Origin: a bacterium
Lineage (GTDB): Bacteria; Patescibacteriota; Minisyncoccia; Moranbacterales; GWC2-37-73
Direction: 5' to 3'
Assembly (NCBI GenBank): GCA_037140955.1
Contig: JBAXDL010000007.1
Coordinates: 1-50,462 of the forward strand
DNA length: 50,462 nucleotides
Shown here: positions 7,964-43,894 of the stretch, one piece after another
How the letters are laid out: each line of letters begins with the position of its first letter
Position numbering within the stretch: position 1 is the first letter of the stretch
Made by a program: the position numbers and the translations under genes
The notes under the pieces: model-generated
What the model was told of the DNA's origin: nothing
Database searches by the model: none
What the model saw: the letters and a program-made list of their open reading frames with translations, nothing else

Positions 7964-9604
7964 CTATTTCCCGCTTCGTTCCTTTGCAGCTTTTACAAAT
8001 TCAAAGAAAAGTGGGTGCGATGAAAGTGGGGTTGATTTGAATTCTGGGTGAAATTGTGAGGCCAGGAAAAATGGATGCTGCGATTTTGGAAGCTCAGCAA
8101 TTTCCATCAAAACTCCACTTGGAGATTTTCCAGAAAAAACAAGTCCGGCTTTTTCAAGACGAGCGACGTATTTTGGATTCACCTCATAACGATGTCTGTG
8201 ACGTTCTGAGATTTTTGCTTTTCCATATGCCCCAAATGCAATGGTGCCTTTTTGCAAAACTGCATCATATGCTCCAAGTCTCATGGTTGCTCCATAATTT
8301 CCAGCTTCCAAATTCTTTTTTTGTTCAGGCATGATGTCGATGATTGGATTTTTTGTGTCAACATTAACCTCAGTTGTATTGGCATCAACAATCCCAAGCA
8401 CATTGCGAGCATATTCAATCACAACAAGTTGCATGCCATAGCAAAGTCCAAAATATGGAATCAAATTTTCCCTGCAATATTGAATAGCTTTAATCTTTCC
8501 TTCGATTCCACGCGATCCAAAACCACCAGGAACAATGATTCCGTCATATTGAGACAATGATTCAATTTTTTCAGGATCTTTTTCAAAAACCTCAGAATTG
8601 ATCCAATCAAGTTCAGGCTTGACGCCAACTTTAAAACCAGCATGCTTGATGGCTTCAATCACACTTATGTAAGCATCTGAAAGCACAAAATCTCCGGTGC
8701 CAAAATATTTTCCAACAATTCCAATTTTAACTTTCTCCTTGGATGCCTTCACCCTCTTGACCAAATTTTCCCATTGTTTCAAATCTGATTTCTTTTCTTT
8801 CAAGCGAAGTTTTTTGAGAATAATTTTGCTTAAATTGTCACGTTCAAAATTTAGCAAAACGTCATAGACACTTTCCACATCAGGAGCGCTGATCACGCAT
8901 TCCTCAGGAACAGAGCAGAACATGGAAATTTTTTCTTTGCGTTTGGCATCCATTGGAACTTCTGAGCGTGCCACAATAATGTCAGGCTGCACTCCGGCGC
9001 CATTGACCGTTCTCACTGCATGCTGCGTTGGCTTGGTTTTCATTTCGCCAATTTTGTTTGGACATGGCACAAAGCTCACCATTACAGACAAAACATCTTC
9101 AGGGTGCTTGGTTTTCATCATGCGAATAGTCTCCATGAAAAGAATGTTTTCATATTCCCCAACTGTTCCACCAATTTCAATAATGGTAATGTCTGATTTG
9201 GCCTTGTTTGATGCATGCACAATGCGATCAATTACTTCCAATGGAATGTGAGGCACAACTTGCACGCACTTTCCAGCATATTCCAAATTGCGTTCCCGAT
9301 GAATCACTGATTCATACACGCGACCAGTGGTCATATAGTTGTCGCGAGAAAGAGTGATTTCCATGAAGCGTTCATAATTCCCCATGTCTTGATCTGTTTC
9401 ATCGCCATCATCCAACACAAAAACCTCCCCATGTTCAGTTGGATTCATGGTTCCAGCATCAACATTCACATATGGATCAATTTTGATTGCAGTCACATTA
9501 TATCCGCGAGCTTTCAAGATCGCGCCAATTGAAGATGTTGTAATCCCCTTTCCAACACCACTCATCACTCCACCCATCACGAAGATGTATTTTCGATTTT
9601 CCAT
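7964..9604 (-). CDS. pyrG: CTP synthase
   Basis: GGVMSGVGKG, KIDPYVNVDAGTMNP, GLCYGMQ, ERHRHRYEVN, QFHPEF. Confidence 0.98.
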   Translation of the reverse strand: MENRKYIFVMGGVMSGVGKGITTSSIGAILKARGYNVTAIKIDPYVNVDAGTMNPTEHGEVFVLDDGDETDQDMGNYERFMEITLSRDNYMTTGRVYESVIHRERNLEYAGKCVQVVPHIPLEVIDRIVHASNKAKSDITIIEIGGTVGEYENILFMETIRMMKTKHPEDVLSVMVSFVPCPNKIGEMKTKPTQHAVRTVNGAGVQPDIIVARSEVPMDAKRKEKISMFCSVPEECVISAPDVESVYDVLLNFERDNLSKIILKKLRLKEKKSDLKQWENLVKRVKASKEKVKIGIVGKYFGTGDFVLSDAYISVIEAIKHAGFKVGVKPELDWINSEVFEKDPEKIESLSQYDGIIVPGGFGSRGIEGKIKAIQYCRENLIPYFGLCYGMQLVVIEYARNVLGIVDANTTEVNVDTKNPIIDIMPEQKKNLEAGNYGATMRLGAYDAVLQKGTIAFGAYGKAKISERHRHRYEVNPKYVARLEKAGLVFSGKSPSGVLMEIAELPKSQHPFFLASQFHPEFKSTPLSSHPLFFEFVKAAKERSGK

Positions 9605-9605
9605 T

Positions 9606-9733
9606 CCAGGTAGTAGAAATTCAAATGAGCTTTGCTCAAAAAAATTCTATATTTTTATATTATATTAAAAAATATGGCTAAAATTTATATTACAAAATAT
9701 CACTTGCTTATTTTTTGAATTTTCACTACCTGG
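9606..9733. mobile_element. MITE-like palindromic element family A, copy 1
   Basis: terminal IR CCAGGTAGT/ACTACCTGG flanked by CATT direct repeats (9602-9605, 9734-9737); homologous to 43720-43842. Confidence 0.75.
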
Positions 9734-9884
9734 CATTTTGTTTTATCCCCCAATGATTAAGAAATAATATAACCTCAATTTGTGTGAATTTTTGACTTTG
9801 ATATGCAAAAAGTCGCGAAATTGCGACTGCGGGTTTGTAATGTTAAAAGTTACTACTCATGCTAAATTCATTTTACACTATTTT

Positions 9885-10322
9885 CTAAGCCTGTTCAACT
9901 GTCAAAACAATGGTGGCTTTGATGCCAAAATCAAGCTCAATAATGATCTTTTTTTCACCAAGCTCTTTGATGTGGTCAATCTTAATGGCCTTTTCAGAAA
10001 TTTCGATTCCACTTTTCTTTATTTCTTGTGCAATTTCTTTGACAGTGATTGAACCAAAAAGCTTGCCATCTTTTGCTCTGGCTTTTAGCACAAAATGCTT
10101 ACCATCAATAGATGCAGCCAATTTTTCAACTGTTTGTTTTTGCAAAGCCAATTGCAGTTTTTTCTTGTCATCCTCTTGCTTGGCACTGCTCAAATTTGTG
10201 GCAGTGGCCGGCGCTGCCAATTTGCGAGCGAGCAAAAAATTGCGAGCATAACCATCGGGAACATTCTTGATTTGACCCTTTTTTCCAACATTTTTGACGT
10301 CCTGAAGAAATATTACTTGCAT
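9885..10322 (-). CDS. rplI: 50S ribosomal protein L9
   Basis: [34 protein letters not shown]. Confidence 0.96.
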
Positions 10323-10381
10323 ATATTTTTTAAGTTAAGTGTTAATCTTTCATATTAGTATAGCCATTTTTTTCAAACAAA

Positions 10382-11074
10382 TCAAATGACACACTTGATT
10401 TGTCTTTTGTTTCGCATGAACACAAAAACAAACAAGGCCTGAGATGCAATTGTTTTCATTATTTCAATATCCTCAATTCTTTGACTTGCTCCTGATTTTT
10501 TGATCACAATATATGAAAAAATATTATCAATAGCACGCGGCGAAGTAATGATGATGAAATTTTTAAATTCAAAATGACTAATGCCAAATTCTCTACCTTT
10601 AAATGAAAAATCAATTTCAATTTCTTGATTATTTTTAAATTCCTTAATCAAGGCATAATCCTGCAACTGCACAAATCTAAGAGAAAAATCATTTGACTTT
10701 GCAAACAAACGAATTGCTTGCATGATATCATCAAACAATTCTGTTTTCCCTTGTGGTGTTAGCTTTGAGCTTTCCGGATACCCTAGGGCTATATTTTCCA
10801 AAATATCAAGCTTTCTGTTGATTTCTCCAATATATGAATAGGAATATTTAAGATCCTTAGACATACTATTAACTCGTCCTTGAATTTTATTTTTTTCAAC
10901 AAGATTTTTATTATAAAGCTTTTCCAACATCAAAAACAAGCCAAAGCCAATTGAGCCAAGAACCAAAATGGCAAGCTCTTGAACTTGAGTAGCACTAAGA
11001 AAATAAAAACCACTATTAATAGAAGTTGGAACGAAAACTATAAAGATAAAAATGGTCAAATATATCCAATACAT
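10382..11074 (-). CDS. hypothetical membrane protein
   Basis: two N-terminal TM segments, coiled coil, possible degenerate GAF-like C-terminus. Confidence 0.7.
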   Translation of the reverse strand: MYWIYLTIFIFIVFVPTSINSGFYFLSATQVQELAILVLGSIGFGLFLMLEKLYNKNLVEKNKIQGRVNSMSKDLKYSYSYIGEINRKLDILENIALGYPESSKLTPQGKTELFDDIMQAIRLFAKSNDFSLRFVQLQDYALIKEFKNNQEIEIDFSFKGREFGISHFEFKNFIIITSPRAIDNIFSYIVIKKSGASQRIEDIEIMKTIASQALFVFVFMRNKRQIKCVI

Positions 11075-11143
11075 AGTCCTTGATTCCTTAACGATTGGTT
11101 AGTTATTCTCGCATAAACATTGGCTATTGTCAATTTGGTAAAC

Positions 11144-11179
11144 AAAAAAATCCTTACTTTTGACAGTTAGGATTTTTTT
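11144..11179 (-). terminator. intrinsic terminator after galU
   Basis: AAAAAAATCCT/AGGATTTTTTT stem. Confidence 0.7.
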
Positions 11180-11195
11180 GTTTTTTACAAGAAAA

Positions 11196-12068
11196 CTAAA
11201 TATTTTTGCAACCTTTCAAATATTCGCGCAATTTTTCTCCAATCTCCGGATGCTTGAGTCCCATGTGAATTGTGGCTTTCACAAAATTGAATTTGTCGCC
11301 AGTGTCCAACCACTCTCCTTCCAAAACTTTTCCATATAACGGACGATCATTTTTGAGCATAATTTCAAAAGCATCAATCAAGCGAATTTCTCCAGACTTG
11401 CCATGATCCATTGTTGCCAAAACATCAAAAACTTCAGGAGTAACAATATATTTTCCCACCGCCACCAAATTTGATGGAGCATCTTCTCTTTTTGGTTTTT
11501 CTACCAAGCCTTTGACTTCATATGTTTTGTCATCAATTTTGACACCATCAATAACTCCAAACAAAGAAACTTGATCATCTGGCACTTCACTCAATCCAAT
11601 CACTGGGTCGCCATATTTTTCATAGGTATCCATGAGTTGTTTTGAAGCTGGAACCTCGCTGTCATACAAGCAATCACCAAAGATCACCAAGGCTGGTTCG
11701 CCATTGAGCAAATGAGCAGCTTGGAGGAGCGCATGACCGTCGCCAAGTGGTTTTGATTGACGAACATAGGAAAACTTGGCTAGCCCTGAAATCTTGCTTA
11801 CTGTTTCAAGCAAAGCATGTTTGTTTTTTTCCACCAAAGTGTCTTCAAGCTCATATGAGATGTCAAAGTGATCCTCAATTGCTCGTTTGCCACGACCAGT
11901 CACAAAAATGATTTCTTCAATTCCGGCAGCCACAGCCTCTTCAACCAAATATTGAATCACCGGCTTGTCTACAATTGGCAGCATTTCTTTTGGCTGAGCT
12001 TTGGTGGCCGGCAAAAATCTTGTTCCAAATCCTGCCACTGGTAAAATTGCTTTTCGTATTTTCGCCAT
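11196..12068 (-). CDS. galU: UTP--glucose-1-phosphate uridylyltransferase
   Basis: KAILPVAGFGTRFLPATKAQPKEMLPIVDKP; start MAKIRKA. Confidence 0.95.
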   Translation of the reverse strand: MAKIRKAILPVAGFGTRFLPATKAQPKEMLPIVDKPVIQYLVEEAVAAGIEEIIFVTGRGKRAIEDHFDISYELEDTLVEKNKHALLETVSKISGLAKFSYVRQSKPLGDGHALLQAAHLLNGEPALVIFGDCLYDSEVPASKQLMDTYEKYGDPVIGLSEVPDDQVSLFGVIDGVKIDDKTYEVKGLVEKPKREDAPSNLVAVGKYIVTPEVFDVLATMDHGKSGEIRLIDAFEIMLKNDRPLYGKVLEGEWLDTGDKFNFVKATIHMGLKHPEIGEKLREYLKGCKNI

Positions 12069-12229
12069 TTTTGTTTGTGAGGTACGAGCAATCACAAAAA
12101 TGAGCGCCCCGTACCAATTTTCGATTATATATTAATTTAAAATAAATCGAGCCGAAGGCGGAACCCGTGAATAATTCTCATTCATACCAAGATCTTTTTT
12201 TGAAATTGGTACTGGGGCAACCCACTTCT
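12064..12229 (-). repeat. structured leader repeat family B, copy 2 (ends at galU ATG)
   Basis: homologous to 6654-6817 in the same orientation relative to the gene. Confidence 0.8.
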
Positions 12230-12236
12230 CGTTTCG

Positions 12237-13064
12237 TTATTGTAATCTTTTTTTACTCCTTGCTTTCAACTCTTCATTAAACTCAGTAATTGCCTGATCC
12301 AAAATTGGGTGGAAATTTCTACTAATCCCTTTTTCTTTCACAATGATACTCGCCTCCAAAAGAGAGTCAGGTGTTCCAGCATCAAGCCACTCACCGGAAA
12401 ACATGGTCACTTCCAATTGTTTTTTCTTGAGATACGCTTTGTTGATGTCAGTAATTTCAATTTCTCCTCGCTCTGATGGTTTGGTTTTTTTGGCAATTTC
12501 CACACATTGATTGTCATACAAATACAATCCAGTCACAGCATAATCACTGATCCAAGTTGTAGGTTTTTCCACAATTTCCATGGCCCTGTTTTCTTTGTTG
12601 AATCTGACAACTCCAAATCGTTCAGGGTCAGAAACTTTTTTGGCAAAAACATGACCACCAACTCGAAAATCTCTGATTTGTTTGGCAAAATCATCTTCAA
12701 AAATGTTGTCTCCCAAAATCAGTGCCACATTGTCATCACCAATGTGATTTTCACCCAAAGTCAAAGCCTCAGCAAGCCCACGAGGAGTCGATTGTACTTC
12801 AAAAGTAATATGAATGCCATGTTTTTTGAGCAATGATCCCAGAAGATTCAAAAATTGACCAGAATGCTCTGGCGCCACAATCACCAAGATATCCTTAATC
12901 CCGGCTTTTATAAGCGTGTTTAATGGGTAAAAAATCATTTGCCTGTCATATACTGGCAAAAGTTGTTTTGAGGTTGTTGCTGTCATCGGAAAAAGTCTCG
13001 TGGCAGTTCCACCAGCAAGCACAATTCCTTTCATTTTTCTTTTTCTTGGTTTTATTGTTTCCAT
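12237..13064 (-). CDS. rmlA: glucose-1-phosphate thymidylyltransferase
   Basis: KGIVLAGGTATRL, SKQLLPVYD, PSERGEIEITD, WLDAGT. Confidence 0.88.
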   Translation of the reverse strand: METIKPRKRKMKGIVLAGGTATRLFPMTATTSKQLLPVYDRQMIFYPLNTLIKAGIKDILVIVAPEHSGQFLNLLGSLLKKHGIHITFEVQSTPRGLAEALTLGENHIGDDNVALILGDNIFEDDFAKQIRDFRVGGHVFAKKVSDPERFGVVRFNKENRAMEIVEKPTTWISDYAVTGLYLYDNQCVEIAKKTKPSERGEIEITDINKAYLKKKQLEVTMFSGEWLDAGTPDSLLEASIIVKEKGISRNFHPILDQAITEFNEELKARSKKRLQ

Positions 13065-13142
13065 TTTGTTGTTGAATATATAACTTACACACTAATTTTA
13101 GCAATAGTCGAATAATTGCGTAAGTCCTTAAAATAATAAAAA

Positions 13143-14390
13143 TTACACTTTTGGATAAATAGGAAAGCGTTTACAAAACTTCACTACTTCTTTTCTGATA
13201 CTTGATAAAACTTTTTTATCATTATGTGCAATGATTATATCATCAATCCAAACTGCGATCATTTTAATTTCAGCTTCTTTCATGCCGCGCGATGTGATTG
13301 CTTGCACACCAACACGAATTCCACTTGGGTCCATTGGTGAACGTGGATCATCAGGAATCATGTTTTTGTTGACAGTGATGCCAGCTTCATCAAGCGCATG
13401 CTCAGCCTCTTTTCCTGTCACCTGCTTGCTACTCATCACATCAATCAACACCATGTGATAATCAGTGCCACCAAACATGATCTTATAACCACGTTTTGTT
13501 AATTCTTTTTCCAAAACTTTAGCATTTTTGATGACTTGTTTTGCATAGGCCTTGAAAGCTGGTCGCAATGCCTCATCAAAAGCCACGGCCTTAGCTGCAA
13601 TATTGTTCATGTGTGGTCCGCCTTGAAATCCAGGAAAGGCTGATTTGTCGATTGCCTTGCCAAATTGCTCTTTGCACATGATCATTCCTCCGCGCGGTCC
13701 ACGCAGAGTTTTGTGAGTTGTGGTGGTCACAATGTCAAAAAATGGCACAGGATTTTCAACTGCTTTTCCAGCAATGAGTCCTGCAATGTGTGCGATGTCA
13801 AACATGGAAATTGCACCAACTTTTTTGGCAATATCAGTAATTTTTTTGTAATCCAGCTTACGAGTATATGCAGAAAATCCAGCCAGAATTAATTTTGGCT
13901 TGTGCTTGAGCGCAAGCTTTTCCAATTCAGCATAATCAATCAAACCATCTTTGCCAGTCTTATATCCAACAAAATTATAGATCTGAGCAGAAAGTGTCAC
14001 TGGATGTCCGTGAGTCAAATGTCCACCATGCGAAAGATCCATTCCAAGAACAGTGTCGCCAGGTTTCAAAACTGCGTTATATGCAATCATGTTGGCCGGC
14101 GCACCAGAATGTGGTTGCACATTGACATGATCAGCACCAAAAAGTTTCTTGGCACGCGCAATCGCCAAAGATTCAATTTGATCAGTAAATTCCTGTCCAC
14201 CATAATATCTCTTGCCAGGATAACCTTCAGAATATTTGTTTGTAAAAACCGAGCCAAGTGCCTCAAGCACCGCCTCGGAAACATAATTTTCAGATGCAAT
14301 CAATTCCATCCCCTCCTGCTGACGTTTCATTTCGCCGGAAATGGTGTCATAAACTTTTTTGTCTTGTTTTTTAAGATTTTTAAAAACCAT
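13143..14390 (-). CDS. glyA: serine hydroxymethyltransferase
   Basis: LIASEN, NKYSEGYPGKRYYGG, TTTTHKTLRGPRGG. Confidence 0.98.
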   Translation of the reverse strand: MVFKNLKKQDKKVYDTISGEMKRQQEGMELIASENYVSEAVLEALGSVFTNKYSEGYPGKRYYGGQEFTDQIESLAIARAKKLFGADHVNVQPHSGAPANMIAYNAVLKPGDTVLGMDLSHGGHLTHGHPVTLSAQIYNFVGYKTGKDGLIDYAELEKLALKHKPKLILAGFSAYTRKLDYKKITDIAKKVGAISMFDIAHIAGLIAGKAVENPVPFFDIVTTTTHKTLRGPRGGMIMCKEQFGKAIDKSAFPGFQGGPHMNNIAAKAVAFDEALRPAFKAYAKQVIKNAKVLEKELTKRGYKIMFGGTDYHMVLIDVMSSKQVTGKEAEHALDEAGITVNKNMIPDDPRSPMDPSGIRVGVQAITSRGMKEAEIKMIAVWIDDIIIAHNDKKVLSSIRKEVVKFCKRFPIYPKV

Positions 14391-14396
14391 GTATGC

Positions 14397-14487
14397 AATT
14401 TTAAATTTTAAATTTTAAATTTAAACTTAAATTATTTAAACATTATAATTTAAAATTCATTTAAAATTTATAATTTAGCCTTTAAAA
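14397..14487. repeat. AT-rich heptamer inverted-repeat element (family C)
   Basis: tandem AATTTTA units facing TAAAATT units; fills the glyA upstream region. Confidence 0.55.
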
Positions 14488-15471
14488 TTATTTAGTGTTC
14501 TTCAGATATTCCCTAAGTGCCAACTTATAACTTCTCAGTGGATTCAATTTTGTGTTTATCAATGTAGAAACATATGGCCTGGCTGCAGGACGTGGAAATT
14601 CATCGCTTCCAACTGGCACAACCTTAACTTTCAACTTAGCCATCTTATACAATTCTACAACCGCATCATGCCATGTGCAAGGACCAGAATTTGCCACATG
14701 ATAAATGCCGAAAGGTTTTTCTGCCTCAATAATTTCTTTTGTTTTTTTGGCAAGATCGGGAGCATAGGTGAAAAGACTTGTTTCTTCATCAACAACTTTG
14801 ACTTCTGCTCCAGACAAGGCAGCTTTTTTGCCAACCTCAAGCATCACATCAAAAAAACTTTTTTTGGCAGTCTTTGACTTTGCTGGTTTGCCAAACAATT
14901 TTGAAAGTCGAATAATATAATATTTTTCTCCATTTTTTTGCACCGCCTCCTCGCCCATCAATTTGCTTTTGCCATATTTTGAAATTGGCTCGGCAATAGC
15001 ATTCTCATCAAATCCTATTTCAGGAACAAAGCCGTCATGTAAAGAGCAAGATCCACATGACCCACCACAACCAGCTGGCTCCGGAATGTCAGGCATGCCA
15101 GAAAAGACATAATCAGTAGAATATTGCACAAAAGTTGCATCAATTTTTTTGGCAATCTTGGCCAAAAACCCAGGAGCTTTTGCATTCAATGCTTTTGCTT
15201 TTTCAAATTCAGCTTTGTCCTTCTCGCAAGCATCAACTGCATTGTAAGCTGCAGCATTTAAGATTATATCCGGCAACAATTTTGAAATTTTTTCCTTAAC
15301 GATATTTTCGTTGGTAATGTCAATTTGTGCAAAGTCCCAAGCAGTAACACGATAATCATCATCACTTTTGAAAATCGAAACGAGTTCCTGCCCAAGCATG
15401 CCATTGCTGCCAACAATCAGCACTTTTTTTGTCTTTGCTTCGAGAATTGTTTTTTTGAGCTTATTTTTCAT
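14488..15471 (-). CDS. rmlD: dTDP-4-dehydrorhamnose reductase with Cys-rich insertion
   Basis: GSNGMLG, NAAAYNAVD, STDYVF, YGKSK, PAARP; start MKNKLKK. Confidence 0.9.
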   Translation of the reverse strand: MKNKLKKTILEAKTKKVLIVGSNGMLGQELVSIFKSDDDYRVTAWDFAQIDITNENIVKEKISKLLPDIILNAAAYNAVDACEKDKAEFEKAKALNAKAPGFLAKIAKKIDATFVQYSTDYVFSGMPDIPEPAGCGGSCGSCSLHDGFVPEIGFDENAIAEPISKYGKSKLMGEEAVQKNGEKYYIIRLSKLFGKPAKSKTAKKSFFDVMLEVGKKAALSGAEVKVVDEETSLFTYAPDLAKKTKEIIEAEKPFGIYHVANSGPCTWHDAVVELYKMAKLKVKVVPVGSDEFPRPAARPYVSTLINTKLNPLRSYKLALREYLKNTK

Positions 15472-15548
15472 ATATTCAAATATTATGTTTTTAGCATTAA
15501 GCCCATATATTGTTGCAAATATTAGCACAATTGTCCAATGATTTCCCC

Positions 15549-15577
15549 TTGACAGCAAGTCAAGTTGATTGTATGAT
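15549..15577 (+). promoter_or_regulatory. sigma70-type promoter
   Basis: TTGACA-17-TATGAT. Confidence 0.6.
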
Positions 15578-15648
15578 AAATTGTTGTTGGTCACATTGTT
15601 GGCCACAACAAAAGCAGTTCATCCCATGGAGTCAAAAAGGAGTAAACA

Positions 15649-16089
15649 ATGCAAAGAAAGTTAACAGCAGAACAAGAGGCCATGCTTGAGGCAAGATTAT
15701 CAGTGGCTATTGTAAGGGATGTCATCAAAAGACACTTCAATTTTGATTACATCGTCGCGACAAAGGATTGCCTTTGTGGATATTGCCAAAAGACCATAGC
15801 TCGTGGAAATCCAGCAATTTCAGTCAAAAATTTCGAAAGAAAAAAATCTGCTCGCATCATTGTTTGCGACAAAGGTTGCCTCGATGGACATGAAACTGCA
15901 GAGATTGCATTTTTTGGATGCAAAGAGTTGGAAAAATTACCAACCCTTGATTACAAGAAAAGAATCATGAACAAAGATGATTTAATAATTGGCTACTACG
16001 AACGCCTATTGGCGGCCAAGCAAAATGCAGTTGATAACGTCGTTGAGCTTCACAGGAACTTCCAAATGCAGTGCGAATATCAAGATTAA
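15649..16089 (+). CDS. hypothetical protein with putative zinc finger
   Basis: CGYC...CDKGC Cys pairs; AAGGAG RBS. Confidence 0.75.
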   Translation: MQRKLTAEQEAMLEARLSVAIVRDVIKRHFNFDYIVATKDCLCGYCQKTIARGNPAISVKNFERKKSARIIVCDKGCLDGHETAEIAFFGCKELEKLPTLDYKKRIMNKDDLIIGYYERLLAAKQNAVDNVVELHRNFQMQCEYQD

Positions 16090-16110
16090 GAATCAACAAG
16101 CATAAAAAGC

Positions 16111-33217: not shown

Positions 33218-34171
33218 TCACTTCAAGTACTCCAAACGCTTTTTCTGCTCAAATCTTTCAATTGCATAGCGCAGTGTTGTGCGAGACATCTTGCCTTTAT
33301 TTTTTTGCAAAAATTCCTCCAACAATTTCTGAGAGCAACGCTTGCCAATTTCTCGTAGCATCCAACCAACAACTTTGTGCATCAAGTCTTCTTTGTCGCG
33401 CAGCAATTTTTCCGCCAAAGAAAATGCTAATTTGCTTTGGCCAAGTTTTATTTCATGAAAAGTTGCCTGCATCGCAATTCGACGCTCCCAAAGATTTTTT
33501 GAGCAAGCCAATGAAAACAACACATCTTTGCTTTTTCCAACCAACCATGCTCCGACTATTTTGTCGCCACTTGAATCAACCAAATCCCAATTATTAACAT
33601 AAGCCGTATTTTCTAAATATAAATCAAAAATTTGTTTTTTTGTTTTTTCATTTCCTTTTTGAAATTTCAAAACAAGTAGCAATATTGCAGCCAAGCGTTC
33701 TTCATGAAATTTTGACTTCATAACATCAGATATCTCAATTAATGACATTTGTTGATGTTTTTTCACAAGCTGCCTAATGGTTGGAACAGTTAAGCCAAGA
33801 AAAATATCACCATAACCATATTGACCCTTTCCTGTTTTGAAAAATCCAGCCAACACCTTGGCTTTTGCAGGATCTTTCAAGGATCTTATTTCCTTTTGAA
33901 GTTTTGATATCTCCATTTTGCTTGTTTTTTTAGACAATATTAGTTGCAGCTTTTTGGTTCTTGATAATTTCTTCACCTCACATTCCATTTTTGAAGCCAT
34001 TGATCTGCTTTGATGTTGCTGCGAAAAAACCAACTCTACTGGCCTGCGAGCCGAGGTGTATTTTGCACCTTTTTTAGAATCATTATGCTCTTTTATGCGA
34101 CGCGCCAAATCAGTAGTGATTCCAGTATAGAAACTGCCATCAGCGCATTTTACTATATATAAATAATACAT
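33218..34171 (-). CDS. GIY-YIG nuclease fused to AlkD-like DNA alkylation repair protein
   Basis: YLYIVKCADGSFYTGITTD..RRIKEHN..GAKYT (aa 1-80), then FFKTGKGQYG, NNWDLVD, LWERR, GWMLREIGK, LRYAIE. Confidence 0.88.
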   Translation of the reverse strand: MYYLYIVKCADGSFYTGITTDLARRIKEHNDSKKGAKYTSARRPVELVFSQQHQSRSMASKMECEVKKLSRTKKLQLILSKKTSKMEISKLQKEIRSLKDPAKAKVLAGFFKTGKGQYGYGDIFLGLTVPTIRQLVKKHQQMSLIEISDVMKSKFHEERLAAILLLVLKFQKGNEKTKKQIFDLYLENTAYVNNWDLVDSSGDKIVGAWLVGKSKDVLFSLACSKNLWERRIAMQATFHEIKLGQSKLAFSLAEKLLRDKEDLMHKVVGWMLREIGKRCSQKLLEEFLQKNKGKMSRTTLRYAIERFEQKKRLEYLK

Positions 34172-34190
34172 AAAAAATTATTTTTTCTAT

Positions 34191-34219: not shown

Positions 34220-34227
34220 TTATTCAT

Positions 34228-36702: not shown

Positions 36703-36732
36703 TATATGTTTTAGACTTTATAAATTATAACA

Positions 36733-37500
36733 TTACACAATTGGCAACCAACGCGTGCTTGAAAGCACCAAAGCAACAAGTGTTGCAAAAAATAACATAT
36801 TAGCAAAAACTCTTTTTTTTGATAATATGTTCAAAAAATGGCACTGCACCAAGTCCCAGAACACATAGTAAAAAATAAGACTAATAACGCCTGTTGTCAA
36901 GTATCCAAATGGCCAAAAATTCAAAATCCACACTATCTCAGCCATTACTAGTCCCAAGACAAGACTGAAGTTTAAAACATTCCTCTTGTCATCATTAATG
37001 AGCCAGAAATATTGAAAGCTAACAAACACCGTTACTAGCATCATCATGAACATTAAAATCCAGAGCGGTATGGCAAAGTTTAAATATATTCCATATGCCA
37101 TTGCATTGAAAAGAAAAATTGTGGCCACACTTCCAGCTGAAATTACACCCCTAGCAGTCTGATCTTTTTGATAATGACGCAAGCGGTATAGTGCAATATG
37201 CAAAAAATAATAAGCAATGGCACTGAGCGCGATCAATAATTGCTGTTGCTTTATTGATTGAACAAAATACAAAAGACCAAAAGTTGAAACTACCAACAAG
37301 ATTGGAATTGGAACCATGCTAATTTTTTGCGATACACGTTTGGCAATTTGATAATAATAAACCAAAGCAGTAACAAACAAAGTGGCAAGCGTCCAGAATC
37401 CAGCTTCGGAAATAAAACTACTCATTGAATCGGTGGTGATAAACTGTAGCATCAGAAAAAAAATCAAACTATACAAAAAAATTTGAAATTGAAAAAACAT
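36733..37500 (-). CDS. polytopic membrane protein (DUF5656-like)
   Basis: about 9 TM segments, AEIVWILNFWP motif. Confidence 0.7.
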   Translation of the reverse strand: MFFQFQIFLYSLIFFLMLQFITTDSMSSFISEAGFWTLATLFVTALVYYYQIAKRVSQKISMVPIPILLVVSTFGLLYFVQSIKQQQLLIALSAIAYYFLHIALYRLRHYQKDQTARGVISAGSVATIFLFNAMAYGIYLNFAIPLWILMFMMMLVTVFVSFQYFWLINDDKRNVLNFSLVLGLVMAEIVWILNFWPFGYLTTGVISLIFYYVFWDLVQCHFLNILSKKRVFANMLFFATLVALVLSSTRWLPIV

Positions 37501-37594
37501 AAAATATAATATCTATACAAAATTTAAAGAAAACTATCACATCTTCAATATTCGCATTTTATGTTAACTATGTCAAAAAATGACGATATATTCA

Positions 37595-40210
37595 CTATTT
37601 TTCAAAAATTATTTTTTCGTTTTTTAATTTTATGCGCACAATGTCACCATCTACAATCTTTCGTTCGATTATTTGCAAAGCCAATTCATCAAGTATTTCA
37701 TTTTGAATGATACGCTTAAGAGGTCTTGCTCCATAAATCGGATCATAACCTTTCTGCGTCAAATAAGCTTTAACCTCATTTGATATCTTAAGTTTGATAT
37801 TTTTTTCATCCAAACGATTTTGCACCAAATTCAATTGAAGATTTGCTATTTCCAGAAGAACTTTCTTGTCCAACGGATGAAAAATTATCAAATCATCAAT
37901 TCTGTTCAAAAATTCAGGCTTAAACTGTTCGCGAAGACTGGCTTGAACTTTTGCCCTCATCTCGTTTTCATCAGTAACATCGTCCTTGCGTTCACCTTGA
38001 AAACCAAACGATTCCATTTTGTAAATAATATCACTGCCAACATTGGAGGTCATGATAATAACCGTATTTTTGAAATTAACAATACGACCCTTGGAATCAG
38101 TTAGTCTTCCATCATCCAGGATTTGAAGCAGAATATTGAAAACCTGAGGATGCGCCTTTTCAATTTCATCAAACAAAATAACACTATATGGTCTTCTTCT
38201 AACGATTTCAGTCAACTGACCACCTTCATCATATCCAACATAGCCAGGAGGAGAACCAATCATTTTGGCAGTTGAATGTGATTCCATATACTCACTCATG
38301 TCCAATCTGATCATTGATTTTACATCATTAAACAAAAACTCTGCCAAAGTTTTTGCCAATTCTGTTTTTCCCACACCCGTTGGACCAAGAAAGATAAAAG
38401 ATCCAATGGGCTTGTTTTCTTGTGAGATCCCTGCACGCGAGCGACGAACAGCATTTGAAACGGCAGCAATTGCCTCTGTCTGACCAATAACGCGCTTTTC
38501 CAATTCTTTTTCCATGAAGGCAAGTTTTTCAAGCTCACTTTCTAGCATTTTTGAAATTGGAATTCCCGTCCAACGCGAAACAACCTTAGCAATTTCTTCG
38601 GCGGTTATTTCTTCTTTTAAGATTGAATTTTCTTTTTGAATTTTGCTTAGCTTCTTTTCTTCGTCTTTAATCTTTTTTTCCAAAAACGGAATTTTTCCAT
38701 AGCGAATTTCAGCAACCTTGTCTAGCTGTCCATTTCTTTCTGCAATTTCAGCTTCCGATTTCAGCTTGTCAATTTCTTTTTTATGTTGACGACTAGCCGT
38801 GATCAAGTCTTTTTCTGTTCTCCATTGCAAGGTCAAAATATTTGCCTTCTCTTTCAATTCTGCCAACTGTTTGTTGATTTGCAAAATCTTGCTGCGAGAC
38901 TCTTTGACCTTGTCCTGTTGAATAGCCTTTTTTTCAATTTCTAGTTGTCGAATCTTTCTTTGCATTTGATCAATTTCCGTTGGCATTGAATCAATTTCCA
39001 TGCGCAAAGCAGATGCTGCTTCATCAATCAAATCGACAGCTTTGTCCGGCAAAAATCTGTCTGAGATATATCTTGAAGACAACTTTACAGCAGCCTGCAA
39101 GGCATCGTCAGTGATTTTTATTCCGTGATGCAATTCATATTTTTCTTTGATTCCTCTTAATATTGCCAAAGAATCTTCCTGTGAAGGCTCGCTGACAATG
39201 ACTGGCTGAAATCTTCTTTCCAGTGCTGCATCTTTTTCGATATATTTTTGATATTCTCTGATTGTTGTTGCTCCGATTGTTTTTAATTTTCCACGCGCAA
39301 GCGCAGGCTTCAGCATGTTTGAAGCATCAAGAGAACCTTCAGTTGCTCCTGCACCCACAAGTGTGTGTAATTCATCAATAAAAATGATATATTTTCCATC
39401 CGCATGTTCAGTCTCTTTCAAAATTGCTTTCAATCTGTCTTCAAATTCACCACGAAATTTTGCTCCAGCCAAAAGAGCACCAAGATCAAGAGAAATCAAT
39501 TCCTTGTCTTTAAGTGTTTCTGGAACATCTCCGGAAGCAATTCTCTGGGCCAATCCTTCAGCAATGGCAGTTTTTCCTGTTCCAGCTTCACCAATCAAAA
39601 CAGGATTATTTTTTCTGCGACGACTAAGCACCTGCATCACTCGACGTATTTCCTCATCGCGGCCAATCACTGGATCAAGCTTGTCCAAGCGTGCCAACTC
39701 CGTCAAATTGATGGTGTATTTTTCAATCACCTGAAACTTCCCTTCCGGCTCTGGAGTGTCAACTTTTTGCGCTCCGCGAAGCTGTGAAAGAATTTGCAAA
39801 ACTACTTCATATTTTACACCATTGCCTTCTAGAATTTTTTTGGCAGGAGAATTTAGCGCCAAAAATGCCAAAAGCAAATGCTCTGTTGAGACAAAATCAT
39901 CACCAATATTTTCCATCTCCTTTTCCGCTTGTTCCAAAATCTGAACAAGCATAGGAGTGATAAAAATTTGCCCCAAGGCTCCTATTTCCGTTTTGGGGTA
40001 TTTTTTTATTTCTTCCAGCACATCAATTTTTATTTTTTCAAGATCAATTCCAATTTTTTTCAAAATTACCGGCGCAATTGAACCATCCTGAGCAATAAGC
40101 GAACCAAGCAAATGAAAAACATCAATCTGCTGCTGGCCCATTGAAATTGCTTGCTCCTGAGATTGTTTGAGCAGTTCTTGAGATTTTATTGTGAGCTTAT
40201 TGATATCCAT
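37595..40210 (-). CDS. clpB: ATP-dependent chaperone ClpB
   Basis: two AAA modules ([16 protein letters not shown]), long M-domain coiled coil, GARPLKR. Confidence 0.96.
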
Positions 40211-40217
40211 GAATACA

Positions 40218-40354
40218 AATTTTTAATTTCCAATTTTTAATTTTATAAATAAATCAAAAAACTTTAATGTTTTTACTCCAAATTTATTCCCTTAGAAGAA
40301 TAATTTAGGAATTAAGAAATTATTTAAAAATTACAAAAATTAAAAATTACAAAA
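40218..40354. repeat. heptamer inverted-repeat element (family C, degenerate)
   Basis: AATTTTT AATTTCC AATTTTT AATTTTA ... AAAAATT-type units upstream of clpB. Confidence 0.55.
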
Positions 40355-40366
40355 TCATTACGAAAT

Positions 40367-41683
40367 TTAGCTTTTACGTTCTTCCAATTTTACCTGCACA
40401 TCCTTGATACTACCTTTGTGTGAAATTTTCAATGTAATCGTATCACCAACATTATATTTGCTAATGACATCATTCAATTGATTGTTTTCATCTAATTTTT
40501 GACCATTAATTTCCAGGATGATATCATTTTCCATTATTCCGGCTTTGTCAGCAGGAGAACCAGGGATCACTGCAAAGTCAGTCATTTTTGTTCCGCGCAA
40601 AACCAACACGCCATAAGAAAAATCAATGCCAGTATCCTTTTGAACACTGCTATCAATTGGGATATACCTTACACCCAAATATGGAATTGATATTTTGACT
40701 CCAGTTTTCACCTGATCAATGAGTCGCTTGGCTTGATTGATTGGCAAAGCAAAGCCAACATTTTGAGCACCTTTTGCAATGGCAACATTAATTGCGATCA
40801 CATCACCATTAATATTAAGCAATGGTCCACCAGAATTTCCAGAATTAATAGCTGCATCAGTTTGAATAATATCAGTAAGCCTTTCGCTGTCACCAAATGA
40901 ACTAGCTGCGTTAATGTTTCTCTTTAGACCTGAAACTATTCCACGGCTAACAGTGTTGGAAAATTCTCCCAATGAATTTCCAATAGCAACAACAGTTTGT
41001 CCTATTTTCAGATTTTGCGAATCACCGAGCTGTATGGTTGGAAAATTATTTCCTTCAATTTTAATGATAGCAATGTCATATATTGGGTCACTTGCTAAAA
41101 CCTTGGCGTCATATTCCTTGCCATCGCTAGTAATTACCGTATAAGATGCTTGCGTGTCTTCAATAACATGCCTGTTTGTCAAAATATAACCATCGGACTG
41201 GAAAATGAAACCACTACCGCCGCCAATTGTTTGTTTTTGACCAGGAGTTGTTGTGTCGTTTTGAGCACTTCCTCCACCATTACCAAAAAAATCAAACAAC
41301 CCACCAGGACCATTCATGTTGATCCTGTTTCTAGTGATATTTTTTGAAATTGAAATGCTAACCACGGCAGGAGAAACACGCTCCACCAAATCTGTTACCG
41401 CAGAGTCTTCTATGACAACTTGCTGTTTGTTGACTTTTGCATCATCCTTGCTGGAGACTGGAAAATATTGATCTATTTTTTTTGAAAATATTTGAGTTGC
41501 ACCTGCTGACAAGAAACCAAAAAGCGCTCCCATCACAGATGACAACATGATTGTGATTACCATCAAAACAACCAGTATTTTGCCAGTGAAAAAAAATTTT
41601 TTCTTTTTTTCTAAATTTGATTCATCAAAAATATTTTCATTATTTTTTTCAGAAATTTGCTCATCATTTTGCATGTTTTCCAT
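40367..41683 (-). CDS. htrA: HtrA/DegP serine protease with PDZ domain
   Basis: TNRHV, YDIA, QTDAAINSGNSGGPL intact triad. Confidence 0.93.
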   Translation of the reverse strand: MENMQNDEQISEKNNENIFDESNLEKKKKFFFTGKILVVLMVITIMLSSVMGALFGFLSAGATQIFSKKIDQYFPVSSKDDAKVNKQQVVIEDSAVTDLVERVSPAVVSISISKNITRNRINMNGPGGLFDFFGNGGGSAQNDTTTPGQKQTIGGGSGFIFQSDGYILTNRHVIEDTQASYTVITSDGKEYDAKVLASDPIYDIAIIKIEGNNFPTIQLGDSQNLKIGQTVVAIGNSLGEFSNTVSRGIVSGLKRNINAASSFGDSERLTDIIQTDAAINSGNSGGPLLNINGDVIAINVAIAKGAQNVGFALPINQAKRLIDQVKTGVKISIPYLGVRYIPIDSSVQKDTGIDFSYGVLVLRGTKMTDFAVIPGSPADKAGIMENDIILEINGQKLDENNQLNDVISKYNVGDTITLKISHKGSIKDVQVKLEERKS

Positions 41684-41813
41684 AATAAGTAGCAGAAATA
41701 TAAATAAGCCTTGCTTAGAAATTTTCTATTTATTTTAAAAAATTATTAACAACCCACTAGATATTACTGAGTAAAAAACTCATTAAGACTAATACAAGAG
41801 GAGAATATTAATA

Positions 41814-41847
41814 TTTCCAATATCACCAACAAGGGTGATATTGGAAA
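41814..41847. repeat. perfect 14-bp palindrome (REP-like or terminator)
   Basis: TTTCCAATATCACC-AACAAG-GGTGATATTGGAAA. Confidence 0.6.
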
Positions 41848-41894
41848 CAAAAGTTTGTACCCTCAAATTGGTCAAAACACCATGCAAGCAAAAA

Positions 41895-42074
41895 CTATTC
41901 TAAAGAAATAGCGTTTACCGGGCAACTGTCTACAGCCTCTTGCACGTCGCAATCTCCACAATCTTCACTAACAACGTGTGATTTTCCATCCTTTATTTGA
42001 AACACGCTAGAACATAGTGATTCACATGTTCCACATCCGATGCACAAATCTTCGTTTACAACTGGTTTTGTCAT
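41895..42074 (-). CDS. small ferredoxin (59 aa, absent from the ORF track)
   Basis: manual translation MTKPVVNEDLCIGCGTCESLCSSVFQIKDGKSHVVSEDCGDCDVQEAVDSCPVNAISLE; CxxCxxC...CP. Confidence 0.93.
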   Translation of the reverse strand: MTKPVVNEDLCIGCGTCESLCSSVFQIKDGKSHVVSEDCGDCDVQEAVDSCPVNAISLE

Positions 42075-42099
42075 ATTATTTTTTTTAAAAAATTATTTA

Positions 42100-43167
42100 T
42101 TAAAACATTATCGACGCATCACCTTGAAACTTTGCTCTTTCAACTGCTTCAAATTCGCGCATTTTTTCATCCCTAAAATCAACCATGCCCTTTTTTGAAT
42201 CCCAAGTAAACTCAGCCAATGGCAAAGAAACTTTCATTTGTTTCTTTTGCGTGTCCAGCCAATCACTAAACGAATCTTTGGAAACAAAAATTTGTCTCAA
42301 CTGCAAAATATCCTCACCATTTTCTTTTTTGCTATTTTCAATTTCAACAATATGAAAACCAATAGAACTTTCTATGATTGAATTTTTTTGAAAAGAACTT
42401 TTTCCAAACAATGCCTCTTGTAACTGCGGCAAAACCTGATCTTTCTTTGCCCAACCAAGTTCACCATCTTTTTCACGAGAAGGTCCCTGTGAATACATAC
42501 GCACAACTTGAACAAATTCTTTTCCAGCTTCAAGATCTTTCTGTGCTTGCAAAATCTTTTCCTTGGCCGATGCTGTGCCTCCAAGTTCTTCTGCTTGGAT
42601 TTTGCTTGCCAATGCATCAGCATAAATTCCAGGCAAAACAATTCGCTGTTTGAATTCTTCCACATCCCAACCATATGATTTCAAAAGATCAGCCTTAAAA
42701 TCTTCCGCGCTTCCAAATTCAGCCAGTTTTTGAGATACAACTTTTTCAGCATCCTTGTCGCCAAAAGAAAGACCTCTTTCTTTTGATAAAACCTCAATAA
42801 TCTTGTCTTCAACCATTTTGTCTAAAATCTCTCTTTCTTTGATCCTCAGACGTTTTTTTCCATTTTCTGTTGTAAAATCAATGCGTAAACCCTCTTTAGC
42901 AAAATCCTGTGTCTGATAAAACTTCTGGACAGATGCCATGTTCTTTTCAACATCGTTGATATATACAATATTTGTCCAGCCAATAATCGCAGCAGGAAAA
43001 GGAATCACTTTGGCAATTTTGACAGCTATTTTGTTGCCTATTTCAGTGTTTGTGCCATAGGCCAAAATGCTGCCAACAAGCAAAACAACCACAAACAAAA
43101 TCAAAATGCCATACACAAGAGTTGATACTTTTACTTTTTTTTCGTCGCTATCGATGTGTTTTTTCAT
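42100..43167 (-). CDS. SurA/PrsA-like parvulin foldase
   Basis: N-terminal TM, SurA-N helices, DGELGW..., IESSIGFHIV. Confidence 0.85.
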   Translation of the reverse strand: MKKHIDSDEKKVKVSTLVYGILILFVVVLLVGSILAYGTNTEIGNKIAVKIAKVIPFPAAIIGWTNIVYINDVEKNMASVQKFYQTQDFAKEGLRIDFTTENGKKRLRIKEREILDKMVEDKIIEVLSKERGLSFGDKDAEKVVSQKLAEFGSAEDFKADLLKSYGWDVEEFKQRIVLPGIYADALASKIQAEELGGTASAKEKILQAQKDLEAGKEFVQVVRMYSQGPSREKDGELGWAKKDQVLPQLQEALFGKSSFQKNSIIESSIGFHIVEIENSKKENGEDILQLRQIFVSKDSFSDWLDTQKKQMKVSLPLAEFTWDSKKGMVDFRDEKMREFEAVERAKFQGDASIMF

Positions 43168-43215
43168 AAAATAAAATTTATTTTTTCAGCAATCAAAACT
43201 TTTTTTGTTTACTTT

Positions 43216-43599
43216 TTAATATTTAAAAAAGAAATTCCACCATTTTTGATAATTAGGAACAGCTGCCTGAGGTTGAACATCCTCCTCAATTGCAACCTCT
43301 TGCTGCTGCTCTTTTTGGGCGCCAGGCTTTACTACTACCACACTTTCATCAGTTTTTTGGAGATTGAGCTTTTCTTTAGCAATCTTTTCTTGAAAATCAC
43401 TAGTTTCAAAATATGCAATACGCTGACCAAGCAAATCATTCTCTTTGGCAATACGATCAGCTTCCTGTTGCAATGCTTGAACCTCTTTCTCGATTGTTTT
43501 TGAGCGATAAGCCTCACGCACAGCACTGATCGAGATTAAAACAGCCAGAACAATACCAGCGATAAAAAAAATAACCACGAATGAAAACTTTTTTTTCAT
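43216..43599 (-). CDS. septum formation initiator (FtsB/DivIC family)
   Basis: TM plus coiled coil, EKIAKEKLNL...ESVVVV. Confidence 0.85.
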   Translation of the reverse strand: MKKKFSFVVIFFIAGIVLAVLISISAVREAYRSKTIEKEVQALQQEADRIAKENDLLGQRIAYFETSDFQEKIAKEKLNLQKTDESVVVVKPGAQKEQQQEVAIEEDVQPQAAVPNYQKWWNFFFKY

Positions 43600-43605
43600 T
43601 TTGTT

Positions 43606-43719
43606 TTAACGTCCAATAAATAATGAAGACAGAGAAAATCCAACCATTGAAATGATGGCCAAAACAGAGATTATTATCCACAGTATTTTCGCTCTTCTTT
43701 TTCTTTTTTGATGACTCAT
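43606..43719 (-). CDS. 37-aa small membrane protein (absent from the ORF track)
   Basis: manual translation MSHQKRKRRAKILWIIISVLAIISMVGFSLSSLFIGR; basic N-terminus plus one TM, stop 6 nt before the next gene. Confidence 0.7.
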   Translation of the reverse strand: MSHQKRKRRAKILWIIISVLAIISMVGFSLSSLFIGR

Positions 43720-43842
43720 CCGGTAGTAGAAATTCGAATGGCCTTTGGCCAAAACTAATCTCAAAAATTAACAACTAAACTTTATTTTTTCCGAAAGTAA
43801 AAATTCTTACAAAACAACTTATTTTCGAATTTTCACTACCGG
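43720..43842. mobile_element. MITE-like palindromic element family A, copy 2
   Basis: terminal IR CCGGTAGT/ACTACCGG flanked by ACTCAT direct repeats (43714-43719, 43843-43848). Confidence 0.78.
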
Positions 43843-43894
43843 ACTCATGCTTTTATTTTATCAAATTTTTTAGTAAAATACAACACACAAAAAA

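Follow-up and report, generated by a model that had tools for sequence, protein, structure and literature searches.

A small transposon-like hairpin element at start codons, with a nuclease-bearing form, in a Moranbacterales genome and its relatives

How can a hairpin of more than a hundred nucleotides lie on the start codon of an essential gene, where an insertion should kill, and leave the gene in use? The question is raised by two stretches of contig JBAXDL010000007.1 (assembly GCA_037140955.1; GWC2-37-73, Moranbacterales), of which 50,462 nt, here called the window, were analysed; the host genome, labelled G000, has an assembly of 1.15 Mb with 36% GC. One stretch lies in front of pyrG and the other in front of a 37-codon gene. 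Both are probably non-autonomous copies of a small transposon-like element of Moranbacteria-type bacteria of the candidate phyla radiation (CPR). They belong to a family with a short target duplication, a position on start codons, a fixed orientation, arms whose pairing is kept by compensatory change, recent insertions and a nuclease-bearing form. The lethal outcome expected at such an unusual target appears to be avoided through rebuilding of the ATG and folding of the insert upon itself.

Two hairpin elements on two start codons

The features of the two sites are as follows.

7964..9604, minus: pyrG (CTP synthase), 546 codons, intact
9602..9605, minus: downstream AATG duplicate, containing the working pyrG start (ATG 9604-9602)
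9606..9733, minus: gene-less mini element of 128 nt inserted at the pyrG start; covariance model score 107.9 bits
9733-9713 and 9626-9606, minus: upstream and downstream arms of this copy, with ends CCAGG...CCTGG
9626..9638, minus: inner hairpin TGAGC-AAA-GCTCA, immediately 5' of the downstream arm, covarying over 96 copies
9734..9737, minus: upstream AATG duplicate, containing the original ATG (9736-9734)
9746..9751, minus: Shine-Dalgarno (SD)-like GGGGGA, 9 nt before the upstream ATG; native pyrG signal
43606..43719, minus: 37-codon gene for a basic, hydrophobic peptide (MSHQKRKRRAKILWIIISVLAIISMVGFSLSSLFIGR), conserved within the genus
43715..43718, minus: downstream TGAG duplicate; working ATG 43719-43717
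43719..43843, minus: gene-less mini element of 125 nt, ends TCCGG...CCGGA; covariance model score 113.9 bits
43844..43847, minus: upstream TGAG duplicate; original ATG 43848-43846
43855..43860, minus: -10-like TAAAAT, 6 nt before the upstream ATG

Two homologous hairpin elements on start codons had been predicted from the window, and the sequence is as described, with the host genes on the minus strand. With element limits defined by the outermost base pair of the paired ends, the pyrG copy occupies exactly the predicted 9606-9733; the second copy had been placed at 43720-43842, which falls short of the modelled 43719-43843 by 1 nt at each end. The pyrG site reads, in order, GGGGGA-TAAAACAA-AATG, the element (CCAGGTAGTGAAAATTCAAA ... 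TTTGAATTTCTACTACCTGG) and AATG-GAAAATCG, and the other site TAAAAT-AAAAGC-A-TGAG, the element (TCCGGTAGTGAAAATTCGAA ... TTCGAATTTCTACTACCGGA) and TGAG-TCATC. The direct repeats proposed to hold the start codons were AATG and ATGAGT. The former stands, and the latter reduces to an exact 4-bp TGAG, the longer match ATGAGT(C) arising because the last A and the first TC of the element coincide with host letters. The rebuilt ATG of the 37-codon gene begins with this terminal A (43719).

Native signals had been placed before the upstream ATGs, and they do lie there, GGGGGA 9 nt before position 9736 and TAAAAT 6 nt before 43848. GGGGGA also precedes pyrG at equal spacing in the empty sites of the same-genus genomes G004, G006 and G008, and a -10-like hexamer stands 6-7 nt before the ATG in five of the seven same-genus empty sites of the 37-codon gene shown. 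TAAAAT is likely the promoter of a leaderless or nearly leaderless transcript. The original ATG of pyrG now starts a 23-codon open reading frame (ORF) ending within the element, and that of the 37-codon gene a 9-codon ORF. The distances of 132 and 129 nt between the paired ATGs were given correctly, and their being in frame is a matter of chance: over the 101 copies tabulated below, element length plus 4, taken modulo 3, falls 37/36/28, without frame preference. The first 150 residues of PyrG are 94-97% identical to same-genus orthologues, and the product of the 37-codon gene is a small membrane peptide.

Both copies fold better than all of 200 shuffles (pyrG, -33.6 kcal/mol, z -3.5; 37-codon gene, -40.2 kcal/mol, z -4.8). 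The three compensatory differences that had been named between them are all present. The inner hairpin at 9626..9638 scored as terminator-like in a simple scan, and across 96 copies it covaries between GC and AU at column pair 129-138 and between GC and CG at 130-137.

A related copy occurs close to the second locus in other genomes. In G004 it lies (L037, C4:678-790) at the start of a 127-aa gene (MKKKFS...), the next after the 37-aa gene, which corresponds to window positions 43216-43599, so that the G000 copy is one gene upstream; G013 likewise has a copy at the start of the 127-aa gene.

Empty alleles and recent insertion

The pyrG site is uninterrupted in G004, G006 and G008, for example with GGGGATAAAACAAA running directly into ATGGAAAAT in G004. 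Inspection of 170 nt upstream of pyrG in all 29 other genomes of the taxonomic family that have the locus found the element in none, and G013 has a short arm-like remnant there. A 2,519-nt metagenome contig (X2), with 29 letter differences over 1,430 aligned to the window, joins position 9601 directly to 9734 and omits exactly 132 nt, four letters fitting either side; a 151-nt contig (X3) has the identical joint, and the two metagenome runs concerned belong to another study. There is thus a strain, about 98% identical to that of the window, that has neither the pyrG element nor the second AATG. Seven same-genus genomes have the 37-codon site without an insert, reading ATGAGTCAT or ATGAATCAT. 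These empty alleles confirm the 4-bp duplications AATG and TGAG at the two sites, and both window insertions are recent. A further host gene, named MEQTG after its first residues, was sampled by its protein rather than via the element; of 30 genomes, 8 have a copy at its start and 22 have none, with a patchy distribution within genera.

The prediction of a non-autonomous mobile element aimed at initiation sites is supported by the duplications, the empty alleles and the nuclease-bearing form described below. It had been open to failure in two ways, namely that copies elsewhere might lack ATG-containing duplications or that relatives might have no empty allele; further copies do have such duplications, and empty sites were found both in sister genomes and in a near-identical strain.

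The pyrG start of relatives is also preceded by at least three other, unrelated inverted-repeat inserts (among L039-L067), which end at the ATG or a few nucleotides before it (...TTCGTAGATTCGTATCGGTATT, ...GAACGCAT or ...GTTAGCATCGCAGCTGC, each followed by ATG). It may be that several hairpin families insert preferentially at this start.

A family placed on start codons

A motif scan together with a covariance model found eight copies in G000, seven of 125-128 nt and one of 337 nt, the limits of the latter being set by hand from its arms. All eight have an exact 4-bp duplication containing TG or ATG, are directly followed by a gene-opening ATG, and carry the GTGAAAATTC arm on the upstream side. 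Their hosts are lexA, a DUF5671 protein, a PAP2-like protein, a PEGA-domain protein, secD, an Rrf2 regulator, pyrG and the 37-aa peptide. The model, built from the seven short copies, had matches in 35 of 61 related genomes, including 25 of the 32 genomes of the same taxonomic family; among 150 other genomes drawn across the phylum, and under stricter filters, the arm family was matched in one.

To the eight copies of G000 we added 93 from 29 other genomes (the best match per genome, 60 more chosen mostly by score, and extras in those loci), which gives a table of 101 copies from 30 genomes, representing the better-scoring half of about 200 model matches. The element is 122-133 nt long in 96 of the 101. 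An ATG stands at its end in 97, beginning with the last base, right after it or one base later, and in 93 of these 97 the reading frame that it opens has 80 codons or more, or stays open up to the end of the fetched DNA. The eight copies of the 101 that are not among these 93 are the one at the 37-aa gene, three upstream tandem members, three with a gene on the opposite strand and one lying 7 nt before an ATG. Orientation, judged from arm asymmetry, agrees with the host gene in 99 of 101 copies; of the three opposite-strand cases, two with inverted arms obey the rule and L032 does not. The duplication is exactly 4 bp in 71 copies, 5 bp in 6 and 3 bp in 8, with TGAA (28), TATG (23) and TGGA (14) making up 65 of the 71 exact cases. 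Register follows end type: T..A ends go with TGNN in 54 copies and C..G ends with NATG or ATG in 36. The host genes of the 97 copies form 65 clusters, three being upstream members of tandems.

The element folds into one long hairpin of 10 bp, a conserved A/C mismatch and 9 bp, with the small inner hairpin beside the downstream arm. In an alignment of 96 copies, which was fitted to the structure and so favours the pairing figures, cells of the 20-21-nt arms are paired in 97.9% and those of the whole structure in 97.5%; both partners have changed in 17 of 24 pairs (222 cells), a result matched by none of 500 shuffles, and sliding partner columns by 1-3 lowers pairing to 28-47%. Arm pairing is maintained by compensatory change. 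The conserved part amounts to about 65 nt, all in plain helices, and a search of Rfam 15 gave no match up to E 1 overlapping either window element (four weak matches lie elsewhere in L158).

Could a simple sequence preference, followed by selection against harmful insertions, explain these positions? Of the G000 ATGs that have T at -1 or RA at +4,+5, which is the preferred context, 5% are start codons, and the share rises to 30% when in-gene insertions are discounted as lethal. Set against this background, the ATG positions of 8/8 and 97/101 and the fixed orientation call for more than preference plus selection, which alone cannot produce them. The same figures bear on the view that the copies are ordinary MITEs (miniature inverted-repeat transposable elements), moved in trans by a DDE transposase with a TGRA/TATG preference and sorted by selection, the nuclease ORF of the long copy being a passenger. 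Terminal inverted repeats and a fixed 4-bp duplication of restricted sequence (65/71) are typical of DDE transposons, and GIY-YIG enzymes, as far as the account in PMC2761285 extends, are not known to make such duplications. This view would yield at most 30% start codons and leaves unexplained an orientation fixed in 99 of 101 copies despite palindromic very ends; moreover, G000 has no longer element with these arms, which occur only about 95 or about 305 nt apart, and the full-length relatives (L068-L072) hold a GIY-YIG ORF alone. We regard it as having a slim chance. The copies do resemble MITEs in being short and gene-less, with terminal inverted repeats, a target-site duplication and empty sites in relatives. 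The likeness among copies over the whole length that marks MITEs was not found, paralogue interiors being 0.63 identical against 0.61 for shuffled ones, and the mini copies share their ends with a form that encodes a GIY-YIG nuclease, not a known transposase.

A rule that leaderless genes are the target was also considered and set aside. Of 65 host sites, 20 have a -10-like hexamer whose last base lies 4-9 nt ahead of the upstream ATG, most often at 6 nt; in the crude gene set of G000 (863-865 starts) used for background rates, the share is about 12% (101 hexamer hits among 863 starts). This is an enrichment, not a rule.

Tandem double insertions at one start codon were seen in several cases (L016, L108, L131, L069 with L010, L036), and at a dnaG-like gene one such pair has a mini copy coming after a nuclease-bearing one; a site already occupied is thus still a target.

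Free interiors and conserved arms

The interior of about 60 nt differs in every copy (mean identity 0.616 and maximum 0.77 over 4,412 non-orthologous pairs, shuffled 0.61), even in G013, whose ten copies have a single arm type in common. For each window copy, a 26-nt word from the interior was compared with a metagenome contig collection, with no match. Cut-and-paste movement of single-copy lineages would fit such unrelated interiors. Two other origins were rejected: as a guide or copy of the target, the interior should align to its own flank, and it does so no better than to other flanks (10.0 vs. 10.2, p 0.64; 97 copies); as a remnant of the nuclease gene, it gave a best tblastn E of 0.05, compared with 0.089 on shuffled interiors.

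In 25 pairs of same-genus orthologous copies the arms are 95% identical, against 69% at third codon positions of the host genes and 75% in the upstream flank. The figure suggests constraint on resident copies, and it is inflated, since the copies were found via their arms. It is also one support for an improbable alternative, a host regulatory leader (attenuator, thermosensor or protein-binding hairpin) recruited and kept by selection. In favour of such a leader, copies sit on essential genes (rplS-, dnaG-, prfA-, greA- and rpmI-like, assigned from N-terminal sequence only), and the inner hairpin with its U-rich arm is terminator-like. Against it stand the strain-level presence and absence at pyrG, the patchy occupancy (8/30) of the MEQTG gene, the 65 unrelated host genes, the nuclease-bearing form and the tandem double insertions, as well as the inflated arm conservation itself.

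The working start codon and host expression

The rebuilt downstream ATG is, by comparison of copies, the working start. In about a dozen copies with an open host ORF the upstream ATG is mutated (GTG, CTG, ACG) or deleted, and upstream ORFs range from 3 to 67 codons, with stops a median of 81 nt (14-126) before the real ATG; therefore the downstream ATG serves as the start and close-range reinitiation is not built in. The original prediction had offered reinitiation or ribosome bypass over the hairpin as ways to keep the gene intact. The first finds no conserved geometry, and a codon-matched bypass does not agree with the second codon of the upstream copy, which ends in the element's own first base. 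More generally, reinitiation, scanning or a hop might let the protein be made from the upstream ATG or depend on it. That ATG is indeed preceded by native signals (an SD at pyrG, a -10 at the 37-aa gene), and the 7-codon upstream ORF of the lexA copy stops 3 nt before the nuclease ATG. Yet the loss of the upstream ATG elsewhere, the distant stops with all three frames in use, the generally unmatched take-off and landing codons, and a predicted unpaired fraction of just 0.15 at +4..+16 after it (68 clean-duplication copies) make this route hardly probable.

For the rebuilt ATG, the same 68 copies gave a predicted unpaired fraction of 0.59 at +4..+16, compared with 0.58 in reconstructed empty alleles. 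The insert would be tolerated because the two arms base-pair with one another instead of with the host mRNA, so that the first codons stay just as open as they were without it. The element appears compatible with host-gene expression, because pyrG is intact and conserved and genes of essential type host copies; the further hosts, named from N-terminal sequence only, include those for L19 (rplS), L35 (rpmI), primase (dnaG), release factor 1 (prfA), GreA and RNase HII.

How ribosomes reach the rebuilt start has to be seen against the scarcity of SD sequences. SD-like 4-mers (spacer 4-12) precede 61 of 865 crude starts, and SD-like motifs overall about 7-12% of genes; the ribosomes therefore need some way to start beside a 20-21-bp helix or after its removal. 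An SD bridged across the hairpin, rejected as a general rule on the same count, could apply to a minority such as pyrG. A motif search of the G000 assembly for the 16S 3' tail gave no match. G000 starts have T at -1 in 52% and A at +4 in 50%. Some genes appear to be leaderless, to judge from a minor peak of -10-like hexamers at 6 nt before the start codon. A consensus scan showed no promoter-like sites inside either window copy; it gave three upstream of 9870 and one on the other strand, no more than in shuffles. G000 encodes both RNase III and RtcB. Access may come about if RNase III, or an enzyme like it, cuts the stem so that a short leader stays on the mRNA, and direct initiation beside the folded hairpin is an equally possible route, neither reaching an even chance; reinitiation after the upstream ORF, a promoter within the element and any other route each appear improbable.

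Removal from the RNA was the third way originally proposed. In such an intron-like process the hairpin would be cut at its base and the ends rejoined (bulge-helix-bulge, or HAC1/XBP1-type with RtcB), restoring a single ATG. The duplication does make the product of precise excision identical to the uninterrupted gene, the arms are conserved and the interiors free as in introns that lost their endonuclease gene, and the two enzymes are at hand. However, RtcB was not found in G012, G013, G026, G031 and G032, which are 90-99% complete and have 3-16 model matches each, and it is present in 20 or more genomes without matches; there is neither an Rfam family nor a ribozyme-sized conserved core, and DNA-level empty alleles with a clean 4-bp duplication are the mark of DNA insertion. 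We consider an RNA intron very improbable.

The nuclease-bearing form

An autonomous element with the same ends had been suggested as something to look for, and the 337-nt copy on lexA (L001:655-991; G000 C1:15654-15990) is a candidate. Its sole content is a 91-aa GIY-YIG ORF, which matches Pfam PF01541 with 59.9 bits (cut-off 22.6; E 3e-16) over residues 3-69. Ten aligned homologues share the invariant residues Y5, Y7, Y18, G20, R28, H32 and E52. We take the two motif tyrosines, the Arg, the His and the Glu to have the usual catalytic roles. The SsnA mutants Y6A, Y17A and E64A described in PMC11893778 also guide this assignment. The nearest solved relatives by sequence are UPF0213 BH0048 (1zg2, E 1.1e-5) and Slx1 (E 0.013).

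The host is identified as lexA by its LexA_DNA_bind domain (8e-17). The copy, the only nuclease-bearing one in G000, lies 6 nt after a TATAAT, and its gene would therefore be transcribed from the lexA promoter. In the full-length relatives with matching arms (L068-L072) a GIY-YIG ORF is again the only gene; it has the direction of the host gene, and its start follows closely on the upstream arm, at most about ten codons from the host ATG; in one relative it is in frame with that ATG. No promoter-like or SD-like signal of its own is visible in these relatives. A second small GIY-YIG ORF lies 1.6 kb from the lexA copy, at C1:17533-17763.

G000 also contains a system described by Chenal et al. 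(Nat Commun 2025, PMC11893778), whose account presents Ssn as single-domain GIY-YIG nucleases with hairpin repeats of their own, in a layout that the authors compare to insertion sequences. Canonical NTS/SRM hairpins (GTC-ATTCCCGCGAAGGCGGGAAT-CCAGG) are represented in G000 by 21 ATTCCC-N8-GGGAAT cores with at most one mismatch, two of them in the window (6414-6433 and 7912-7931), and at C2:51235-51618 a 103-aa GIY-YIG ORF stands between two inverted NTS copies, the published NTS-ssnA-NTS layout in a CPR bacterium. None of the 21 cores is in or beside the start-codon element; they flank the other GIY-YIG ORF, at C2:51354-51554. Because this canonical cassette, with different repeats and a protein 41% identical to the element nuclease, resides in the same genome, the start-codon element is a sister system of Ssn, not the same thing.

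Proposed mechanism and its weak points

We propose that the full form consists of nothing but a 91-aa GIY-YIG gene between pairing 20-21-nt arms, plus the small inner hairpin. It would insert at a start codon with a 4-bp duplication, either of TGNN, with the ATG completed by the terminal A of the element, or of NATG, with the ATG duplicated as a whole. An intact ATG and coding sequence would then follow the element, and an orphan ATG with the native upstream signals would precede it. Landing at start codons would lend a promoter-less nuclease gene the promoter and initiation site of a host, which offers a rationale and not a mechanism. It is fairly likely that the GIY-YIG nuclease moves the element, and it probably acts on the hairpin as single-stranded DNA (ssDNA), like its Ssn relatives. 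In the PMC11893778 account, SsnA binds the hairpin only as ssDNA, on one strand, and cuts upstream by a few nucleotides, within the variable flank; by kinship, a cut 4 nt outside the hairpin base may be supposed here.

We put forward more tentatively that the hairpin could be a working part of the initiation region of its host. Expression would occur only if the arms pair, through extrusion or through an RNase III cut that leaves a new 5' end by the rebuilt AUG, and selection would keep resident copies as 'structural introns' at the start of translation. The 91-aa ssDNA-type nuclease would then be the sole enzyme of a transposon, recognizing initiation regions (start codons in this lineage, SD-like sites in a distant one) and riding on a host promoter, here that of the SOS-type lexA.

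Several observations weigh against the interpretation of the copies as start-codon transposons moved by this nuclease. No cue was found that separates start-codon ATGs from the other 95% of similar sites in G000. Genome G139, of another family of the phylum, has three copies (L198, L200, L202) with the same arms (CCRGGTAGTGAAAATT...AATTTCTACTACCYGG) at GGAG/CTCC-like sites; none of these occupies an ATG, and one falls within an SD located 9 nt ahead of an ATG. Since interiors differ from copy to copy, no donor copy is apparent, and BLAST with the pyrG copy in 32-33 genomes of the taxonomic family gives arm matches or, over the full length, 68-74% only. The location of copies via their arms biases the conservation estimates. 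In the 68 copies the rebuilt ATG is predicted to be less open than in the empty alleles (unpaired 0.24 vs. 0.45), as are the 12 nt before it (0.14 vs. 0.51); with this region paired, expression should therefore suffer unless the stem is opened or removed. Finally, the characteristic GIY-YIG product has 2-nt 3' overhangs according to the account in PMC2761285, unlike a 4-bp staggered duplication.

Relation to known systems and implications

Stable hairpins that ribosomes skip in the initiation or early coding region are known from phage T4, where an mRNA segment in gene 60 is bypassed and a hairpin in gene 38 joins SD and AUG; these are single gene-specific devices of 20-50 nt. The element differs in being a mobile family in which matched take-off and landing codons are not the rule, and in G000 SD-like motifs precede only about 7-12% of genes. 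With GIY-YIG homing endonucleases of the I-TevI type, encoded in group I introns or as free-standing phage genes, it shares the catalytic core, a selfish character and the loss of the endonuclease from most copies while the structure stays. In contrast to these, the nuclease matches TIGR01453 with 21.2 bits against a cut-off of 56.05 and, at 91 aa, lacks a DNA-binding domain; the element is no intron (no Rfam match) and has many unrelated targets where homing endonucleases have one cognate allele.

The IS200/IS605 and REP/REPIN-RAYT systems rely on HUH/Y1 transposases, leave the target unduplicated and insert beside a specific short sequence. The element, by contrast, has a GIY-YIG enzyme, a 4-bp duplication and a start-codon target. 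What they have in common, following the discussion in PMC11893778, is strand-specific, hairpin-tied ssDNA mobility with many gene-less and few enzyme-bearing copies.

Like the start-codon element, the Correia elements of Neisseria are gene-less units of about 100-150 bp with terminal inverted repeats and long hairpins. They measure 100-155 bp and duplicate TA. To our knowledge they have no autonomous partner encoding a GIY-YIG nuclease. Neither start-codon targeting nor a rebuilt ATG is reported for them, and their interiors are shared within the family, unlike the unrelated ones here. According to the account in PMC2649163, Correia elements (CREE, NEMIS) are co-transcribed with adjacent genes and form long hairpins to which RNase III can bind, with cleavage or protection as the outcome, a precedent for the RNase III route proposed above.

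The closest parallel is Ssn, which in the PMC11893778 account also combines a single-domain GIY-YIG protein of about 90-100 aa (about 94 aa) with flanking hairpin repeats of its own and many gene-less copies; an SsnA-like cut in the flank would fit one 4 nt outside the hairpin base. The start-codon element lacks ATTCCC-N8-GGGAAT, and has instead arms that pair across the whole element and an inner hairpin of 4-5 bp, together with the 4-bp duplication, the start-codon position and the fixed orientation. The main text of the Ssn paper (PMC11893778; supplements aside) does not contain 'start codon', 'Patescibacteria' or 'Candidate'. In a full-text literature search, neither an element that targets start codons nor a transposon with a GIY-YIG enzyme alone turned up, and the family is apparently an undescribed variant of hairpin-type mobile elements.

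If the proposed mechanism is true, a form of about 330 bp with one 91-aa protein would be about the smallest autonomous mobile element imaginable, the GIY-YIG nuclease would join the short list of enzymes that move bacterial transposons, and Ssn-type ssDNA nucleases would gain a mobile relative with a readable insertion signature. The system raises the questions of how a DNA enzyme discerns start codons and how SD-poor, ultra-small bacteria initiate beside a 20-bp helix. For annotation, gene callers will choose the wrong ATG or predict short false ORFs at element sites. An exact, self-insulating insertion may also be useful as a tool.

Other small GIY-YIG genes

Small GIY-YIG ORFs occur in all 33 genomes of the taxonomic family, with 1-8 per genome. 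Some (L078, L082, L085) have quite different arms that also abut an ATG, others (L073-L076) are followed by repeated GGGGCGTGCCCC-GTTAGAAATTTC hairpins, and a conserved one stands immediately upstream of a tRNA gene in five genomes (L080, L081, L084, L086, L087). In the window, a weak GIY-YIG-like match (E 5.5e-6) lies at 33983-34174 on the minus strand, within a 319-codon open frame.

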